Source of the DNA: a virus
Virus genome (UHGV): UHGV-0266139
Strand: one strand, 5' to 3'
DNA: 10,581 bases
This document shows positions 1-8,489 of this stretch, in pieces. The position numbers were made by a program, and so were the translations under genes. The stretch's first letter is position 1; each line of letters starts with the position of its first letter. The notes below the pieces were generated by a model. The model searched no databases. It saw only the letters and a program-made list of their open reading frames with translations, and was not told the origin of the DNA.

Positions 1-49
1 AACGCGTTATAAATAAATGTATGAAAGATGTTGAGCTGGTCAACGTCTA

Positions 50-253: not shown

Positions 254-427
254 ATGGATCTTTTTGTCTATTTCGCTACTCTGCTGTTTTTGACTATCGT
301 CGCTGGCATTAAATTGATTTTTATATCGCTGGTGGTGTTTTTCAAATTTCTAATCGGTACGCCTTACGGCTGGGTATGTTTAATCCTGTTTATTCTTTTT
401 AGTTGCTGTAAAAAGGATACTAAATAA
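254..427 (+). CDS. Small membrane protein, 57 aa (MDLFVYFATLLFLTIVAGIKLIFISLVVFFKFLIGTPYGWVCLILFILFSCCKKDTK), two predicted transmembrane helices, charged C-terminus
   Basis: ATG at 254 preceded by AGAGGA (242-247) at 6-nt spacing; two hydrophobic stretches and KKDTK tail; followed downstream by two plus-strand terminators. Confidence 0.45.
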   Translation: MDLFVYFATLLFLTIVAGIKLIFISLVVFFKFLIGTPYGWVCLILFILFSCCKKDTK

Positions 428-1086: not shown

Positions 1087-2049
1087 TTAAGCTGCTTTGC
1101 GAACGTCGAACACATTTTCGAACGCATCAAAAACTTTAACTGTCATTAAATCGATGAATTGAACGGAAGAACCATTTTTCTTAATCAGGTATTTGTTCCA
1201 TTCTGCAACGTCTGCAACAGTACGCTTTTCGTTAAGCAGAATCCAAAGAGCTTGTTTGTCTTTAGATTCAACCGCTTGAGTAAAGAAGTCTTTAGATTCA
1301 ACTTCCTGATCTGCTTCAACTGCCACAGGAGCAACTTCTTTAGCTTTCAGTTCTTCAATCTCAGCTTTCTGTGCTTCGATGATCTGGTCTTTTTCTTTCA
1401 GTGCAGCTTTCAGTTCTGCGATCTGTGCTTCCAGTGCAGAGAAACGATCTTCAACAGCAACCGGAGAAACAGCATTCACCTGTGCTTCCAGTTCCAGGAA
1501 TGCTTCGCAAGATTCAATGCGTTCTTTCTCTTCACCTTCATAAGCAACCAGTTCTACAACTTCTTTTTCGGTAGCGTGGCTGTTAAAGAATACAGCAAAG
1601 TAAGGATTGCCGGATTTAGTGAAGTTCAGTTTAGCTTTTCCGGTAACTTCTTTACGACGACCAAAGGTAATGTTGCAATCAGCGGTATCCTGAAAATCCA
1701 TGTTAGGAGCGGAAACGATAGCAGTATCACCAGCAATAACCAGGTGGAACAGTTCAGAAGAGTTCTTAACGGTGAAAGTAACGATGTGGTCTACTGCAAC
1801 GTCTTTAGCAGGTTTAACGCGGTCGATTGCTTTACGAACGCCGTTAGACAGTTTACCGTCAACACCAAAGCCAGCCGCGATCAGTGCTTCACGATGTGCT
1901 TTAAAGCCAGCGAAAGCGGATTTCTGCTGCGCAAAGGAAACATGAGCAACAACTTTCGGCTGAATCTTCTTGTTTGCTTCGGTGCCAAATTTGATAACTG
2001 ATTTAGCGTTGGTTACTTCGTTAGTGAAAAAGTTAGCGGAAAATAACAT
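1087..2049 (-). CDS. Hypothetical protein, 320 aa: N-terminal domain, central A/E/K-rich coiled-coil region with an internal short repeat, C-terminal domain
   Basis: ATG at 2049 with AGGAG 8 nt upstream; long ORF whose antisense frame is F/C-rich junk. Internal DNA repeat TCTTTAGATTCAAC at about 1257-1270 and 1289-1302 (encoding VESKD twice). No family recognised. Confidence 0.7.
   Translation of the reverse strand: MLFSANFFTNEVTNAKSVIKFGTEANKKIQPKVVAHVSFAQQKSAFAGFKAHREALIAAGFGVDGKLSNGVRKAIDRVKPAKDVAVDHIVTFTVKNSSELFHLVIAGDTAIVSAPNMDFQDTADCNITFGRRKEVTGKAKLNFTKSGNPYFAVFFNSHATEKEVVELVAYEGEEKERIESCEAFLELEAQVNAVSPVAVEDRFSALEAQIAELKAALKEKDQIIEAQKAEIEELKAKEVAPVAVEADQEVESKDFFTQAVESKDKQALWILLNEKRTVADVAEWNKYLIKKNGSSVQFIDLMTVKVFDAFENVFDVRKAA
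1145..1164. repeat. 20-bp perfect direct repeat ATTAAATCGATGAATTGAAC, copy 2 (inside the 3-prime end of the 320-aa gene, encoding VQFIDLM on the minus strand)
   Basis: Identical to 200-219; hand comparison. Confidence 0.6.
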
Positions 2050-2093
2050 TATAAATACTCCTGTGGAAAGTTAGTTTTAATTGTTCATTTCAA

Positions 2094-2131
2094 GCCTCCT
2101 TTGCTGCAACAAGGGAGGCTTTTTCTTTTTT
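2094..2131 (+). terminator. Plus-strand intrinsic terminator candidate: stem GCCTCC (2094-2099) / GGAGGC (2114-2119), TTTTTCTTTTTT tail (2120-2131)
   Basis: GC stem followed directly by a 12-nt T-rich tract on the plus strand. No plus-strand gene lies upstream of it (the flanking genes are minus-strand), so its target transcript is unknown. Confidence 0.45.
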
Positions 2132-2163
2132 AAAGCCATCATATAATTCTCAGTGAAAGTGGA

Positions 2164-2343
2164 TTAACAAACTTGAACGTTAATCTTTACCTGAATTTCG
2201 TATTTCTTCATTAGCTTGTAGAATCCGCTTCTATCAATTCCTTCCTTCTTAAAGAAGTTTTCCCCGCCTCGCTCAGTGTCGCTGTAAAAGCGTTTAGCAA
2301 TATCAACAATCATTTCACGAGTGAACTTAACAGGTCTAGCCAT
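2164..2343 (-). CDS. Small HTH DNA-binding protein, 59 aa (MARPVKFTREMIVDIAKRFYSDTERGGENFFKKEGIDRSGFYKLMKKYEIQVKINVQVC); first gene of the leftward operon
   Basis: Track ORF starts at a GTG (2358); the ATG at 2343 has GAGGAA 7 nt upstream. RP..F...DIA...Y....GI..FYK.MKK pattern resembles Hin/resolvase-type or Mor/C-type HTH domains (from memory). Paralogous to 5629..5856. Confidence 0.55.
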   Translation of the reverse strand: MARPVKFTREMIVDIAKRFYSDTERGGENFFKKEGIDRSGFYKLMKKYEIQVKINVQVC

Positions 2344-2443
2344 CAGTCGATTCCTCACATGTGGATTAATAATTTCTTAAAAAAGAGCATTTCGCTCTGA
2401 ACACTTGTATTTATAAAATGATTTTCAGAAAACCCTGTAAAAC

Positions 2444-2463
2444 CACTGTATATCCGATCAGTG
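2444..2463. promoter_or_regulatory. Operator-like inverted repeat CACTG-N10-CAGTG (CACTGTATATCCGATCAGTG)
   Basis: Palindromic arms seen directly; near-identical second copy at 2529-2548; lies in the control region upstream of the leftward operon. Confidence 0.35.
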
Positions 2464-2528
2464 GGAGCACGAATTGCTAAAGAGAAGATTAATTATTAAT
2501 CAATTCGTACAATATTCAACCGAAAAAG

Positions 2529-2548
2529 CACTGTATATCTAACCAGTG
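2529..2548. promoter_or_regulatory. Operator-like inverted repeat CACTG-N10-CAGTG (CACTGTATATCTAACCAGTG), second copy
   Basis: 17 of 20 positions identical to 2444-2463, same dyad arms, 85 bp away. Confidence 0.35.
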
Positions 2549-2700
2549 CTGTATGAATTAGCAGTGAATCAGGAGATTTTCAGAAGTGAACAATCATTTC
2601 ACACATGTATTTATAACGTGGAAATTCTTGCTTATCATCTATATAGGGACTGTTTAGAAAATTTCAACCCCCACCAGTGAGAAAAAGTATAAAATAATCC

Positions 2701-2729
2701 TTGACAGTTGTCAATACACTTGACCTAAG
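2701..2729. promoter_or_regulatory. TTGACA-N13-TTGACCTAAG motif (contains palindrome TTGACAGTTGTCAA), copy 1
   Basis: Same arrangement TTGACA-N13-TTGACCTAGA recurs at 4318-4346; -35-like hexamers but no good -10 at 17 bp, so promoter versus operator is undecided. Confidence 0.3.
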
Positions 2730-2912
2730 CGAGAAATGGCTATCAAATTTTTTGTTTGAAAATGGTAGATCAGGATTATCAACCTTTATAACCTATTATG
2801 GCACGGAGACCTTTTGACAATTCTTTTTAAATCATTAACTTACGCCACTTTTTGGTGATTTTTTGATTAAATAATATACAATAATTTTCTATCAAAATAT
2901 TTGATGGGAATT

Positions 2913-3105
2913 GCCCCTGAAATTCTGAATTTTTGCCCCCGAATAAAATCCCCAAGATTCCACTATCCAATTTTTGCCCCTGAAACCTACTATTTTTGCC
3001 CCTGAAATTCTGGGAAACAGTGATTTTGCCCCTCATTTTTGCCCCTGAAATGACAATAATTGCCCCTGAAAATCTAATTTTTGCCCCTGAAATTTGCCCC
3101 CGAAA
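2913..3105. repeat. Array of about 9 same-orientation direct repeats, consensus TTTTTGCCCC(T/C)GAAA, mostly 21-22 bp apart (iteron-like)
   Basis: GCCCC cores start at about 2913, 2935, 2976, 2998, 3028, 3041, 3062, 3083, 3096 (hand-counted); a further copy at 5446-5455 sits inside a terminator stem. Confidence 0.7.
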
Positions 3106-3246
3106 GGGATTGGTGAGAAAAACCATTTATAAAACATTAACTTAGCGAGGGCAAAAGCGGGGAATCGGGCGTGCATAGATATTATATAACACATTCGCTA
3201 CGCTCATGTGTAAAACCAAAAACAACAAATAACCAAAAAGATATTA

Positions 3247-3265
3247 GGAGGGCGTAGCCCGACTG
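3247..3265. repeat. About 20-bp direct repeat GGAGGGCGTAGCCCGACTG, copy 1
   Basis: Matches 3678-3697 (GGAGGGCTTTAGCCCGACTG) with one indel; the two copies bracket the CTAG-rich module. Confidence 0.5.
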
Positions 3266-3285
3266 CGCGAAGCGCCAACCAATTG

Positions 3286-3530
3286 CTTCTAGTAACAACT
3301 AATTTAAACTAGATGATACTAGATGGTCTTAGAAGGAATTAACTAGTTTGCTCGCTCGCTTCGCTCACTCTCAAACGTCTGCGACGCCACTGCGTGGCAT
3401 CGAGAATCACTTCTGAAAGGATTTTCTCGAAAGGGATTTAAACTAGTTACTAACTGATTCTAGAAAGATAGTAATAATCACTTTGAAGATAATAGTAGTT
3501 AACTGGTTACTAGATGATTCTAGATCACTT
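3286..3530. repeat. CTAG-rich repeat module: units at 3308-3326, 3441-3467 and 3501-3527 (AACT(A/G)GTTACTA..TGATTCTAGA) flanking a GC-rich core at about 3348-3410
   Basis: Eight CTAG tetramers within about 235 bp against a handful across the rest of the window (by eye, not exhaustively counted); units 3441-3467 and 3501-3527 match at 21 of 27 positions; the core contains GCTC direct repeats and a GCCAC/GTGGC dyad. Confidence 0.6.
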
Positions 3531-3553
3531 TAATGATCATGAAAGGTATTGGT

Positions 3554-3582
3554 ATCCCTTCGGGATTGCAACCTTCGGTTGC
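3554..3582 (+). other. Two adjacent short hairpins: ATCCC/GGGAT (3554-3566) and GCAACC/GGTTGC (3568-3582), both with TTC(G) loops
   Basis: Inverted repeats seen directly; no clean T run follows, so RNA structure or processing site rather than a canonical terminator. Confidence 0.3.
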
Positions 3583-3677
3583 TAAATTGCTTCCTGATTA
3601 TTATTTCTCCAAAAGAAAGATTCTTATATTCTAAAGATACTTCTTCGTTTTGATGATGATTTAATCAAATCTATGAA

Positions 3678-3697
3678 GGAGGGCTTTAGCCCGACTG
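3678..3697. repeat. About 20-bp direct repeat GGAGGGCTTTAGCCCGACTG, copy 2
   Basis: See 3247-3265. Confidence 0.5.
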
Positions 3698-3786
3698 AAT
3701 ACAATCACCTTCTAAAAGAGATAAATTTTTCTCGTTATAAATAATAGTGAACTTACTTGATTCACTTTCTTTTAGAGGATACCACT

Positions 3787-4245
3787 ATGATCAATACTAA
3801 AACTCCTTTCGTACTTCTGGGTCTGGACTCTGAAAACTATGGTAACTTCCATATGCTAGAAGTTTTCGCTAATCGTGGTTATAACATCATTCGTCATTCC
3901 GAAGACTCCAACTACTCAACTGCTTTCTACGCTTTAAAACGAAATGGTCGTCCTACTGTGATCATCGACTGTTTTACTGATGAGGGTCGTCTTCAATACA
4001 ACGATATTCCAGCAATTATTGTTCGTGATGATCTGCCGTTTCAAGTCCGTGAGTATGACGTTGATTTAGGCTCTTACTACTCTTTAGCGGAACTTGACCA
4101 GATTATGGCTGATTACGGTAAACAACCCGCTCAGGAAGCCCCAGAACAAGATGAAGAAGATGAGGAAGACGAAGACTACGCTCCAATCTGTTTCTCTTCT
4201 CAGAATGGCTTCTACGGTTACGATGAAGGCTTAGATATGCTGTAA
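3787..4245 (+). CDS. Highly acidic protein, 152 aa (about 31 D/E against about 10 K/R), with poly-acidic stretch EQDEEDEEDED near the C-terminus; function unknown, candidate DNA mimic or other host-interaction protein
   Basis: Track ORF starts at TTG 3757; the ATG at 3787 has AGAGGA 7 nt upstream. Codon choice looks like a highly expressed enterobacterial gene (CTG, CGT, GGT, TTC, AAC, TAC), judged by eye. First gene downstream of the repeat-rich region. Confidence 0.7.
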   Translation: MINTKTPFVLLGLDSENYGNFHMLEVFANRGYNIIRHSEDSNYSTAFYALKRNGRPTVIIDCFTDEGRLQYNDIPAIIVRDDLPFQVREYDVDLGSYYSLAELDQIMADYGKQPAQEAPEQDEEDEEDEDYAPICFSSQNGFYGYDEGLDML

Positions 4246-4280
4246 GTTAGGTCAACCCTTTGGTGTCTTGTCAAGGGGTA

Positions 4281-4309
4281 TTGGCAAAAATTTATGACTT
4301 TTTTATGAT
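4281..4309 (+). promoter_or_regulatory. Near-consensus sigma70-type promoter: TTGGCA (4281-4286), 17-bp spacer, TATGAT (4304-4309)
   Basis: 5 of 6 matches in each hexamer with optimal spacing; sits between the acidic gene and the 48-aa ORF. Assumes an enterobacterial-type host. Confidence 0.45.
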
Positions 4310-4514: not shown

Positions 4515-4541
4515 GATAAAAATTTCTTTATAAATAAAATT

Positions 4542-5437: not shown

Positions 5438-5445
5438 TAATTTTT

Positions 5446-5470
5446 GCCCCTGAATTTCAGGGGCTTTTTT
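5446..5470 (+). terminator. Strong intrinsic terminator: GCCCCTG (5446-5452) / CAGGGGC (5458-5464), T6 run (5465-5470); built on a copy of the GCCCCTGAA repeat
   Basis: Perfect GC-rich stem followed directly by TTTTTT, 9 nt after the Rha-like stop codon. Confidence 0.75.
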
Positions 5471-5473
5471 GTA

Positions 5474-5509
5474 TCTGTAGATGCGCTGAACTTTAAGCGC
5501 ATCTACAGA
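5474..5509. promoter_or_regulatory. Perfect 13-bp inverted repeat TCTGTAGATGCGC-N10-GCGCATCTACAGA, followed by palindrome GATGCATC (5514-5521)
   Basis: Seen directly; lies in the intergenic gap between the Rha terminator and the minus-strand cassette; candidate protein-binding site or second hairpin. Confidence 0.4.
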
Positions 5510-5587
5510 TTTGGATGCATCTATAGATCAGTCAAGATTTGGACTCAGCTTCGAGATGAGCGCAGTTTTGCGCCGATTGTTTTACAT

Positions 5588-5613
5588 ACAAAAAAGCCAC
5601 TCCGAAGAGTGGC
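5588..5613 (-). terminator. Minus-strand intrinsic terminator: GCCACTC (5596-5602) / GAGTGGC (5607-5613) with a run of T on the minus strand (plus-strand A run 5588-5595)
   Basis: On the minus strand the stem has a UUCG loop and is followed by UUUUUUGU; 16 nt past the stop codon of gene 5629..5856. Confidence 0.65.
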
Positions 5614-5628
5614 AAAGAGAATCAAAAC

Positions 5629-5856
5629 TCAAAAACCTGTTGCTTCTACGATCTGACCATCACCGATCTGAACATAGAATTTAATGTCTAACTTCTTCAT
5701 ATTCTTATAGAATTGGGCGATTGAGATCCCATGTTCACTAAGAATCTGTTCTTTCGCTTCCTTACCACGATCCGCTGTATAATAAGCGTAGGCAATATCA
5801 GCCATCTGTTCAGCGTTAAAACGGGCAGGGCGACCGCGAGTAGCTTTAGTAGTCAT
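5629..5856 (-). CDS. Small HTH DNA-binding protein, 75 aa (MTTKATRGRPARFNAEQMADIAYAYY...GISIAQFYKNMKKLDIK...), paralog of 2164..2343
   Basis: Track ORF starts at GTG 5889; ATGs at 5862 and 5856, the latter 9 nt from GGAG. RGRPARF then helix-turn-helix pattern resembles the Hin/resolvase-type DNA-binding domain (GRPR arm plus HTH), from memory. The start could be 5862. Confidence 0.55.
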   Translation of the reverse strand: MTTKATRGRPARFNAEQMADIAYAYYTADRGKEAKEQILSEHGISIAQFYKNMKKLDIKFYVQIGDGQIVEATGF

Positions 5857-5891: not shown

Positions 5892-6494
5892 TTATTTAGA
5901 GGACTTACATTTTATCGGAAAAAGTTCTCCATCGTCAACCGACATAAAGAACTCTGCCTTAATCCCGTACTTCTTCAACCGTGAATAGTATGTACCCCGA
6001 CTAATATCAACCTTGCGAAGCACTTCGAAGAACTCTTTAGGATTCCTGTAATAATGGCTATAACGCACGTTAGCGAGTTCAACGAATAGTTCCCTTGTAT
6101 CACCATAGCCTTTCTTGAAAGCCTCGTTACGATAGCGTGTAATAGCGTGATTCGATCTCTTCTGTTTAAGCACTTCCCTGATCGGCTTCCACTGCAACCG
6201 ATAGATTGGACCGCCATCCACTCGATAATAACGCTTGATATCAAAATCAAACCATTCACGGACTCGCTGAAACTCTGTCTGTGATGTTCGGTGCTTCTTA
6301 AAGAAGTTATGAATATCGGTATACCCATGATCGCGATACAACTCGATTAAAATCTCTTTCGCTTCCTCACGACTAAAGCCAGATGTTGTGTAGTCGGTTT
6401 TTAAATGCTTATGCTTAACGGGTAAACGATATTCATGATCGGTACAAGACAAGGCTAATTCTAATTCATCTCTTTCTTGCTGATTAATTAGCAT
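5892..6494 (-). CDS. Basic 200-aa protein rich in R/K/Y with a C-terminal HTH module related to the two small HTH proteins; candidate DNA-binding regulator
   Basis: ATG at 6494 with AGGAGG about 4 nt upstream; C-terminal ...[26 protein letters not shown] aligns without gaps to the 75-aa protein (IS, Y, KK, IK). No nuclease motif (GIY-YIG, HNH, LAGLIDADG) seen. Confidence 0.65.
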
Positions 6495-6581: not shown

Positions 6582-8489
6582 ATGAAACTAATTTCTAATA
6601 AGGCCAAATTAAAAAAGATTCTCAGAAATGCAGCCAAATATATTACGCCACCGCCTAAACTCCTTCCATCGGAATGGTGCGAAGCGAATATGGTGCTGGT
6701 AGATGGTCCTCAAGCTGGGGATAAAGTTAAACTGCTGTCATTCCAGAAAGGCATGATTGATGCTCCTTTCCTTGAGAACAAGAAAAAGTATGTTCTGATG
6801 ACCAGTGCGCAGATCGGAAAGACTACCATCCTGAACGGCATCCTGTTTAACCAGATGGCTAACGATCCATGCAATATGATTATCGGACAATCAACCGCTA
6901 AAGAAATGTCTCAATATCTCGCTGGTAAGATCCGACCGTCTATCGAAGCATGTGATGCATTAAAAGACGTGGTTACAGACAAGAATGATCGCAATTCGGT
7001 TAATAACAATAACCAGCTACAGCTCAAAACGAATCACTTCCTGTACATGGTATCGCTTACCAGCCCATCAACCCTACGTGGTAAGACCGCAAAGGTTGGA
7101 TTACTTGACGAAATTGATGCTGCCACAGCCTCAGAAGAAGGTGATCCGGTGGCACTGGCTGCTAACCGTTTAACTACCTTTGGAGATGAAGGTCGATTAG
7201 TCGTATCCAGTACCCCGACCAGTAAGCTGGGAAGCATTAACCAGCAATGGTTATCAAGCGATATGCGTATGTTTTTTGTTCCGTGTCCTCATTGCGGGGA
7301 ACACCAGGTGATCGAGTGGGAAAACGTTCAATTTGAATGGCGTAACATCGATGGTAAGAACTTACCCGATCCTGATACCGCTCGTTATATTTGCCCCCAC
7401 TGTAAGAACGCATGGACAGAAGGGGAACGAATCAGGGCAGTAGCGCAAGGCGAGTGGAGAGCAACCCGTGAAAGTGAAGTAGCAGGATTCTGGATCAGTC
7501 GTCTGTATTCACCTTTCAGCACGATTCGCGCTTGTGTGGTTGATTTTAGTCATGCGTGGCAATCCTTTGATTTACAATCCTTTTTTAACACCGTGTTAGG
7601 CAAGGTATACGATGATCAGGACACGGCAGTAGAAGCAAATGAACTGGAACAACTCAAAACAGATGTTTCTATCGAGAATATCCCTGATGACGTGATTTTC
7701 TTGTGCTCAGGAATTGACCAGCAATTGGACCGCGCAGAATCTACCATCTTAGGTGTAGCGAAAGATAAGGTTTACATTCTGGATCACCGTAGCTTTTACG
7801 ATCATAACTGTGAACGATATGAATCCCCTGTATGGGATCGTCTGATTAACTTCAAGAAAACCAAATTCTATAACGTTAATGGTGAACGTGTGCCAATGCT
7901 CGCCAGCTTCCTTGATACATCGAACGGTCGATTCACTCAAGCCGGATACCGTATTTGCGGCAAGTGGAAGAACCTACACGCTATCAAAGGTAGTTCATCT
8001 GGTAATGCTCCAGTGATTCCGGTTAAACCTACCCGCACAGGTGGTCATGAATTGCTTATGCTGGGTGTTAACGTTGGTAAATCCGCTGTTCGTGAAATGC
8101 TGGTTAGAAACCTGAAAGATAATCCTCATATTGGCTTAGAAATATCAGAAACCGTTCCTGATGATTATCTCGATCAGCTTTTGAGTGAATCCATCAAGCG
8201 TACTACTACTGGCGTGCGTTGGGTGAAAAATCCAGGTAGTACCCGAAACGAGGCTCTCGACTGTCTGGTTTATAGCTATGCTGCTTCTCGCTACGTCCTT
8301 TCAAAAATGTCATGGGATAAACTCATTGCAATGAAAGACAGCTTAAACCGTGTTGTCGAAGAATCCGTAGAAGCTCCTAAATCGCAATCTGACGAGCAAA
8401 TAGAAGAAACTAAGCCAATCACACGACCACAACGTCAAAACATCGCCAGACGTCCAAATAGAGGCCGTAGCTGGGTAACATCGTTCTAA
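6582..8489 (+). CDS. terL: Terminase large subunit, lambda gpA type, 635 aa
   Basis: ATG with GAGGG 7 nt upstream. Walker A-like SAQIGKTT, acidic VGLLDEID, zinc-ribbon CPHCGEHQ...CPHC, and blocks [32 protein letters not shown] match lambda gpA (ACPHCGEEQ, YSPFTTW, AGIDSQLDR, RNEALDCFVYALAA) from memory; size matches (lambda 641 aa). Confidence 0.9.

Follow-up and report, generated by a model that had tools for sequence, protein, structure and literature searches.

The iteron origins of lambdoid phages (ori with its O protein) and of the plasmids P1, pSC101 and R6K are organized around short same-strand repeats, and oriV of RSF1010 carries the ssiA and ssiB hairpins on opposite strands beside its iterons, much as hairpin-forming sequences stand beside iterons in the locus described here. 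In phages with a lambda-type cos site, the small-terminase gene follows directly downstream of it, in the order cosN, cosB and terS. We analysed a 10,581-nucleotide stretch of virus genome UHGV-0266139 (the window), which is the left arm of a ~35-kb temperate E. coli/Shigella prophage. At positions 3286–3530 a reading of the letters alone (the sequence-only reading) had noticed three related CTAG-bearing repeat units around a G+C-rich island, and had proposed a cos or pac site, with an origin as the main alternative. The CTAG-rich feature occupies the middle of a 1.4-kb non-coding control region (2344–3786) between divergent early operons. Comparing 30 distinct variants of this region from related prophages, we came to favour, tentatively, the view that the feature is origin-flanking early-control DNA within a modular origin/early-control region.

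The feature itself is real and non-random. CTAG is depleted across the window (19 observed against 25–38 expected), and 8 of the 19 occurrences fall at 3289, 3309, 3319, 3343, 3443, 3460, 3510 and 3520, a local cluster with a Poisson probability of ~2e-8. In 1,000 dinucleotide-preserving shuffles, 8 CTAG never occurred within any 245-bp window and 7 did so twice, bearing out the enrichment that had been reported. These occurrences are not independent because they are located inside repeated units, and the relatedness of the units is genuine: AACTAGTTACTAACTGATTCTAGA (3441–3464) and AACTGGTTACTAGATGATTCTAGA (3501–3524) are 88% alike, and ACTAGATGATACTAGAT (3308) and ACTAGATGATTCTAGAT (3509) 94%. 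Unit 1 is a 36-bp near-palindrome in which 15 of 18 positions of 3288–3305 are complementary to 3306–3323, a score reached by none of 500 shuffles. The island between the units is as described, with 61% G+C in its core (3348–3403) against 29–30% in both flanks, and the GCCAC/GTGGC dyad is present within it. The sequence-only reading had overlooked a repeat family ATCACTT(T)nAnGAT (3406, 3477 and 3524), GAAAGGnATT boxes (3415, 3429 and 3541), six small C-GNA-G hairpins and a far stronger array of iterons located 180 bp further left.

This array holds eight of the nine matches to the iteron word in the window (0.17 expected), the ninth lying at 5444 in the terminator that follows the Rha gene; within a complete prophage the word is confined to the array. 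Five of the seven spacings are 21–22 bp or double that, that is, at multiples of the helical turn, and an A+T-rich stretch (85%) at ~2850–2905 precedes the repeats. Related prophages carry unrelated repeats at the same position, namely AACCTACACTA, CCCCAAGATTCC, TCCCCG, or CCCCGGTATTAG plus GATGTACAAG. In 14 of 14 loci the iteron type matches the type (A, B, C or D) of the N-terminal domain of a 313–343-amino-acid (aa) protein, which in the window is a 320-aa protein of the leftward operon. Variants with two arrays (L034 2640–4682, L037 2225–4459, L019 427–2475) carry two tandem paralogous genes for it. Because of the 14/14 match and the pairing of two arrays with two genes, the 320-aa protein is the predicted iteron binder. 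Its C-terminal domain, a 59-aa helix-turn-helix protein and a 152-aa protein shuffle independently of iteron type, and no further protein follows that type; the C-terminal domain partly tracks the downstream gene, and lambdoid O/P modules offer a comparison for such separate shuffling. Exchange of the iterons involves a segment that stretches from 2907 to ~3406 and therefore takes in CTAG unit 1 and the G+C-rich core. The CTAG count follows iteron type as well, being 5–8 in type A (7–8 in 13 of 14), 3–6 in type B (3–4 in 13 of 14), 9 in type C and 1–2 in the rest, and no phage protein other than the iteron-linked one tracks it.

Given that the genome lacks a recognizable replication protein, even in the complete 35-kb prophage, and that exchange of the iterons is accompanied by exchange of the N-terminal domain of the 320-aa protein next to them, we consider array and protein to be probably an origin and its initiator. 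Three LexA-type boxes (CTGT-N8-nCAG; 2446–2461, 2531–2546 and 2549–2564) lie in the leader/promoter region of the leftward operon and are kept in 19 of 31 variants; the right half-site is nCAG, with the canonical ACAG in some boxes of some variants. They suggest direct SOS control of that operon, which would fit an SOS-triggered lytic function; the prophage yielded no CI-like repressor. The array, the binder, the missing replication gene and the LexA-type boxes appear to be read most simply as an origin and its initiator. The origin that had been named as the alternative to cos is thus compatible with these results and gains indirect support from the array and its co-varying protein, but the iterons themselves lie outside the coordinates that had been marked.

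According to the model that we favour, the N-terminal domain of the 320-aa protein would recognize the iterons, and the CTAG-rich feature would form the right flank of the origin, as architectural DNA and not as a place of cleavage. Its CTAG/TAGA boxes (the 36-bp palindrome and one to three further units) would bind an accessory or regulatory protein, their number changing through unequal exchange. Once the initiator had opened the DNA, each displaced strand could fold its own hairpins, and these would label both strands as places where helicase is loaded or priming begins; insulation and regulation of the rightward operon (152-aa, 48-aa and Rha proteins) may be a further role of the hairpins.

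A number of observations weigh against this model. The 320-aa protein has no detectable initiator homology, with no match in Pfam, PHROG, PADLOC, NCBIfam or PDB, and its AlphaFold model (pLDDT 38) is unusable. A DnaA-box cluster and an IHF consensus site were looked for and not found, and no partner protein for the CTAG boxes emerged from the co-variation comparison. Variants L034 and L037 have one core hairpin in common despite differing iterons and initiator N-terminal domains, which separates the hairpins from initiator specificity. A Mu-type repressor with its operators would likewise account for a direct-repeat array and a coiled-coil binder set between divergent operons, linkage alone could explain why unit 1 and the core are inherited along with the iterons, and the fold z-scores against shuffles (−3.6 for the top strand, −4.6 for the bottom) fit a structured transcript equally well.

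Some further observations concern the iterons and their presumed binder. A search of the N-terminal domain against 1.84 billion representatives returned 13 hits only, the distant ones being spurious repeat proteins, and PDB sequence searches with the 320-aa, 200-aa and 152-aa proteins returned nothing. The terminator after the Rha gene (5444–5475) is an inverted pair of type A iterons, TTGCCCCTGAA-TT-TCAGGGGC followed by T6, so that the iteron-binding protein might act there too. On the opposite strand to the operon of the 59-aa and 320-aa proteins, 2050–2121 (+) contains TATAAATA and then a 12-bp hairpin with a T-run (2092–2121); this element adjoins the ribosome-binding site of the 320-aa gene and could encode a ~60-nt antisense RNA like those that control plasmid rep genes.

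The anatomy of the region is set out in Table 1, and the variants differ in how much of it they keep. The block at 3405–3465, with an identity of 0.84–0.92 in variants that differ by 20–40% outside it, is the best conserved, and its CTAG unit 2 is replaced only in L019, L034 and L037. Unit 1 is present in 14 of 30 variants, all of iteron type A (it is expanded in L015); types B and D have unrelated sequence in its place. The full form of the unit 3 stretch occurs in 10 of 30 variants and a 36-nt substitute in 13, and the divergent L034 and L037 have four ATCACTTT boxes and a single CTAG. Units 1 and 3 are therefore dispensable. Within the core the word TCGCTTCGCTCAC is among the conserved parts, and at the position of the dyad a G+C hairpin of 5–6 bp is always present, in four unrelated sequences.

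Table 1. Position, strand and make-up of the features discussed (window coordinates unless a contig is named)
Feature	Position	Strand	Description
Iteron array	2911–3104	+	eight TTGCCCC(T/C)GAA on one strand; start-to-start 22, 41, 22, 43, 21, 21 and 13 bp
320-aa protein gene	1087–2049	−	beta-rich N-terminal domain of ~170 aa, coiled coil, variable C-terminal domain; putative iteron-binding initiator
Hairpin pair	3250–3275	+	GGGC-GTA-GCCC (3250–3260) and GCGC-GAA-GCGC (3265–3275), GACTG between
CTAG unit 1	3288–3347	no strand	palindrome TCTAGTAACAACTAATTT/AAACTAGATGATACTAGA (3288–3323), then TAGA boxes at 10-bp steps to ACTAGT (3342–3347)
G+C-rich core	3348–3403	no strand	word TCGCTTCGCTCAC (3356–3368), hairpins CGTC-tgc-GACG (3376–3386) and GCCAC-tgc-GTGGC (3386–3398)
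Best-conserved block	3405–3465	+	ATCACTT, tandem boxes GAAAGGATTT and GAAAGGGATT, CTAG unit 2 (3441–3464)
Variable stretch	3466–3540	+	ATCACTTTGAAGAT (3477), CTAG unit 3 (3501–3524), ATCACTTTAATGAT (3524)
Hairpin pair	3554–3582	−	ATCCC-ttc-GGGAT (3554–3566) and GCAACC-ttc-GGTTGC (3568–3582); bottom-strand loops both GAA
A/T-rich module	3593–3672	+	ends in TTCTTCGTTTTGATGATGATTTAATCAAA; holds palindrome TTTGAT-N9-ATCAAA
Hairpin and GACTG	3681–3699	+	GGGC-TTTA-GCCC then GACTG; second copy of the 3250 element
TATAAATA at right-hand boundary	3736–3743	+	43 nt before the 152-aa gene start (3787); right-hand boundary of the control region
TATAAATA copies	8–15(+), 2050–2057(+), 2408–2415(−), 2608–2615(−), 3736–3743(+), 4529–4536(+)		also L009 37926–37933(−)
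Leftward operon			59-aa helix-turn-helix protein, 320-aa protein, 113-aa protein
Rightward operon			152-aa protein (start 3787), 48-aa protein, Rha anti-repressor, then terminator at 5446–5475

To either side of the CTAG units it is structure that persists. The 3250–3275 element is 0.76–0.90 identical to the window across the variants, with ACGGC-GTA-GCCGT, GGGC-TTT-GCCC or GCGC-GTA-GCGC in place of the window's hairpins, that is, with stems kept and loops or stem letters changed; its 13-mer AGGGCGTAGCCCG also occurs in phage DCP80, the closest cultured relative (TerL identity just 43%). L015, L017, L034 and L037 have other hairpins, TGC-TTC-GCA and GACGCTC-AGG-GAGCGTC, at the place of 3554–3582. 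The hairpin at 3681 varies to GGC-GAA-GCC, GGGC-TTT-GCCC or TGGC-TTTA-GCCA, with indels of 1–3 nt that rule out a coding reading of 3681–3699. The stretch 3540–3700 is conserved overall, and TATAAATA at 3736 is invariant in 30 of 30 variants with variable flanks on both sides. Several other identities for parts of the region were tried and rejected. The small open reading frames (ORFs) at 3533–3634 and at the ATG at 3673 suffer frameshifting indels and start-codon loss in the variants. A TrpR operator does not agree with a CTAG spacing that is, by eye, 7 or 10 bp rather than 8, and the PurR-like core box is missing from type B. The units are too degenerate, and not tandem, for the ToxI-like repeats of a type III toxin-antitoxin system, and the 152-aa protein had no hit among the PADLOC defence-protein models or in Pfam (ToxN family included). 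A CsrA sponge would be rich in GGA motifs, and a rough estimate by eye shows no such enrichment.

The hairpins share a loop pattern that depends on the strand. All six of the perfect 3-nt-loop G+C hairpins in 3250–3582 have the form C-GNA-G; in the two left of the palindrome it is the top strand that reads so and in the four right of it the bottom strand, where both core loops read GCA, with a single switch of strand. The remaining three such hairpins of the window are not C-GNA-G, a form that a random hairpin of this kind would take with a chance of ~1/16 (a rough estimate). The hairpin positions are retained across the 30 variants while the sequences are exchanged, and mini-hairpins of this type are exceptionally stable as DNA. 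One might see in the six a new strand-symmetric landing pad, set beside an iteron origin and around a CTAG palindrome, that would recruit host primase or helicase in both directions; GACTG after the 3250 and 3681 hairpins would then offer the CTG start signal for DnaG. We regard this as a long shot, which if true would explain how DNA synthesis starts in a 35-kb phage without replication enzymes. The idea that the dyad is an inverted-repeat operator for the initiator was rejected, as L034 and L037 share the hairpin but neither iterons nor protein. The notion that C(UUCG)G tetraloops reveal which strand is the RNA was rejected too, since hairpins 3554 and 3568 have 3-nt loops.

After origin-flanking DNA, our ranking places a structured RNA, then a pure operator region and, last, a cos site. 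The first of these rivals, which we judge unlikely, is a structured non-coding RNA or long leader, either a top-strand RNA of ~330 nt or a leader for the operon of the 152-aa and Rha proteins. A weak promoter directly preceding 3250, in which GATATT at 3240–3245 is −10-like, would give a transcript that starts with the hairpins 3250/3265 and ends at, or passes, 3554/3568, its repeats (AUCACUUU, GAAAGGNAUU and CUAG units) serving as reiterated binding or processing motifs. The top-strand fold z-score agrees with this, as does the keeping of hairpin structure under replacement of sequence. So do the variable repeat copy number (it varies in sponge-type RNAs too), the occurrence of related T4-type modules in transcribed intergenic regions and a GGAGGGC-loop-GCCC-GACTG element that is found twice, each time after a TAT(T/G)A word. 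However, the bottom strand folds slightly better, and the GNA-loop pattern requires both strands, which favours DNA hairpins. No Rfam 15 family matched the whole window at E ≤1, and the 650-nt stretch 3150–3800 gave at E ≤10 only chance-level hits far under the gathering scores. The top strand has no sigma-70-like promoter in 2900–3800, none of the six TATAAATA elements points into the segment, no T-run follows 3582, and the phage's true terminators (689–715 and 5597–5620) have C(UUCG)G tetraloops as opposed to the 3-nt loops here. A lower probability still goes to the second rival, in which iterons and CTAG/TAGA boxes would be operators for a repressor or activator at divergent early promoters, comparable to those of the Mu c/ner region or P22 immI, and would play no part in replication. 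The position between divergent operons, one with a Rha-type anti-repressor, would suit such operators, as would the 36-bp palindrome with its TAGA boxes at 10-bp steps. The swapping of a DNA-binding domain with its sites resembles heteroimmune variation, and three small paralogues that look, by eye, Hin-like in their helix-turn-helix are available as binders. Yet no regulator co-varies with the CTAG units, LexA-type boxes before the operon of the iteron binder fit a lytic function better than a repressor, eight same-strand sites mostly 21–22 bp apart have an origin-like geometry, and the phage would be left with no candidate origin or initiator.

A cos or pac site, at which the terminase would nick the G+C core while TerS binds the flanking repeats, is in our estimate very improbable. 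Lambda-type packaging genes are indeed present (a gpA-type TerL, a lambda-family portal and a Nu1-like TerS), and the GAAAGGGATT boxes resemble GAAAGGAAAC, which we take to be the lambda R-site core. One copy of CCAATCCCTTTC lies in the terS leader, and in DCP80, a distant relative, the same set of motifs occurs at the beginning of the record, no more than 1.3 kb ahead of terL. The comparison of related prophages nevertheless contradicts the proposal that core and repeats correspond to cosN and cosB, for the module varies under an identical TerL and is unchanged under a TerL of 58% identity. L003 has an identical TerL and a 98%-identical TerS, yet it is without units 1 and 3 and its dyad is different; in both L003 and L020 the TerL is 100% identical and core and dyad differ from those of the window; and L009 has the same region as the window with a TerL only 58% identical. 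Core type does not follow TerL (identity 58% in L015 and 90% in L017), the core exists in four unrelated forms, and neither the GAAAGG boxes nor the other boxes of 3286–3552 track the TerS helix-turn-helix allele. As to position, terS lies 3.3 kb upstream of the site and terL 3 kb downstream, beyond an operon that has its own terminator. Metagenome and IMG/VR contigs end at the equivalents of 3140, ~3473, ~3610 and 3787; the ends do not coincide, and we rejected them as physical ends. The inverted-repeat-rich 5481–5586 was rejected as a cos too, being an optional insertion missing from L003 and many variants.

A better candidate for cos lies in front of terS. The Nu1-like terS, which matches phrog_57 at E 2e-15, ends one base ahead of window position 1 (position 3365 of contig L005) and is 6.6 kb from terL; the N terminus of TerS (TEISRLYGYTINAAKKWQERGMPF) resembles, by eye, the winged helix of lambda Nu1. 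The leader of terS, ~550–800 bp left of window position 1 (L005 2560–3364 together with terS, or about −800 to 0 in window coordinates), is a 230-bp, G+C-rich sequence conserved in all loci, with TTTCC boxes and a dyad, GGTCGC-TAC-GCGACT. It comes in two alleles, as does the TerS helix-turn-helix, and the two pair consistently in 18 of 18 loci; because of this co-variation we regard the leader as the canonical cos candidate and likely the true cos region, with the caveat that adjacency could explain the linkage. A search of the leader against phage records gave no match. A plausible-looking cos call is thereby corrected, and the leader of the Nu1-like terS becomes the place to seek cos.

The right-hand part of the control region has counterparts in T4-type phages. 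The A/T-rich module (TTCTTCGTTTTGATnATnATTTAATCA) is shared with Krischvirus (RB49-like, T4-type) phages and is 77–82% identical to intergenic DNA in 59 phage records; it also occupies L002 1352–1575 and L042 601–684. RB49-like phages have 2–3 module copies per genome, and in RB49 the 3594–3677 stretch forms two tandem copies. In KFS-EC the module separates gene 35 from gene 36 and is directly followed by a TATAAATA late promoter, and in L017 (about 3930–4010) it is inverted. The window has six copies of the T4 late-promoter consensus, TATAAATA, where 0.75 would be expected, and none of 200 shuffles gave as many. Each copy points to a gene start 35–85 nt off (those of the 59-aa helix-turn-helix, 152-aa, Rha and 139-aa proteins) and is followed by a small hairpin. 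No gp55-like factor is recognizable in the prophage, and the copies possibly represent an unusual −10 element or cross-talk with a superinfecting T4-type phage. DCP80 shares exact words with the control region and has a local CTAG cluster upstream of terL. In this phage (PQ671644; L001 1–1300, L045, L048) the T4-type early genes motA, ndd, rI and gp52 occur together with a gpA-type terL at 1.7 kb, a TerS homologue at 25.8 kb and late genes in the order of this prophage; ndd is annotated twice, and the record represents a true hybrid phage or else an assembly chimera.

The prophage belongs to a lineage whose early genes are almost all orphans, and a literature search on it found nothing. TerL, a gpA-type large terminase, is encoded at 6582–8489, with genes for a head-tail joining protein and a lambda-family portal after it, and E. 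coli contigs encode an identical TerL beside host genes. The region 2000–4300 occurs in 58 of 5,426 complete E. coli genomes (~1%) at 80–96% identity, chromosomal every time. NZ_CP026723 (strain 266917_2) has a complete copy of 34.7 kb that sits in hicB and encodes a large serine recombinase at the right end; further copies are within or beside ycdX, and L033 is an integrated copy. DNA searches gave no match for the region among plasmids or for 3240–3600 among phage records. Strain rl0044 (L008 17201–23348) has a 6-kb prophage remnant that is truncated within the Rha gene and has the non-coding control region entirely intact. Directly after terS, two small and very hydrophobic ORFs at 100–201 and 254–427 (+), of 33 and 57 aa, have good ribosome-binding sites; they are without PGAP annotation in the complete genomes inspected and could be membrane peptides. 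The three small paralogues mentioned above are the 59-aa protein at 2164–2343(−), a 75-aa protein at 5629–5856(−) and the C terminus of a 200-aa protein at 5892–6494(−). They share the terminal motif G-I-D/S-x-S-x-F-Y-K-x-x-K-K-Y-x-I-K, which by eye is like a Hin-type helix-turn-helix, and have no family match; the 75-aa and 200-aa genes travel with terL in every case. The 106 bp at 5481–5586 contain 14-bp inverted repeats, ATCTGTAGATGCGC ... GCGCATCTACAGAT, and a third partial copy, and are cleanly missing from many variants, resembling a small insertion element.

If our reading is right, this locus of a lineage without a cultured relative is a compact natural experiment in origin specificity, with at least four iteron types, each paired with a matching protein domain. 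The hairpin/CTAG flank of the origin could then show how a small phage recruits the host replication machinery.

Among described systems, the PeSL cassettes of T4-type phages (PMC4122927) resemble this region in their short G+C stem-loops with A/T-rich promoter-like DNA and in the 80-nt module common with RB49-like phages, in either orientation. RB49 PeSLs, however, have near-perfect TTGACA-N17-TATAAT promoters, and the stem-loops here, lacking a sigma-70-like promoter on the top strand of 2900–3800, are not PeSLs as the literature defines them (PMC4122927). The Mu operators O1–O3 and the coiled-coil Mu repressor are similar in having many short direct repeats between divergent early promoters and, in the binding protein, an N-terminal DNA-binding domain and a central coiled coil; here, in contrast, LexA-type boxes precede the binder operon, the sites are evenly spaced in the same direction and there are no transposition genes. 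With lambda cos (cosN, the R sites of cosB, Nu1 and gpA) the locus has in common the family of packaging proteins and a G+C element beside repeats, and its purine-rich GAAAGG boxes are suggestive of R sites. It differs in that the feature is not next to terS and so does not have the placement of a lambda-type cos, does not co-vary with TerS or TerL, and has dispensable flanking units and a core of unconserved sequence. The mini-hairpins of the d(GCGAAGC) type match all six hairpins here in their C-G closing pair and GNA triloop, and GCGAAGC itself lies within 3265–3275. Known examples are isolated motifs, and we know of no strand-switched set of six beside iterons. From the iteron origins the locus departs in its orphan protein without a fold assignment, the absence of DnaA boxes and of a phage-encoded primase or helicase, hairpins of just 4–6 bp and, relative to lambda, where the iterons are in the initiator gene, an array outside that gene. 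It nonetheless resembles them in its same-strand repeats of 11–12 bp, mostly two helical turns apart, in the adjoining A+T-rich stretch and in an initiator-like gene alongside whose DNA-binding domain is swapped together with the repeats.

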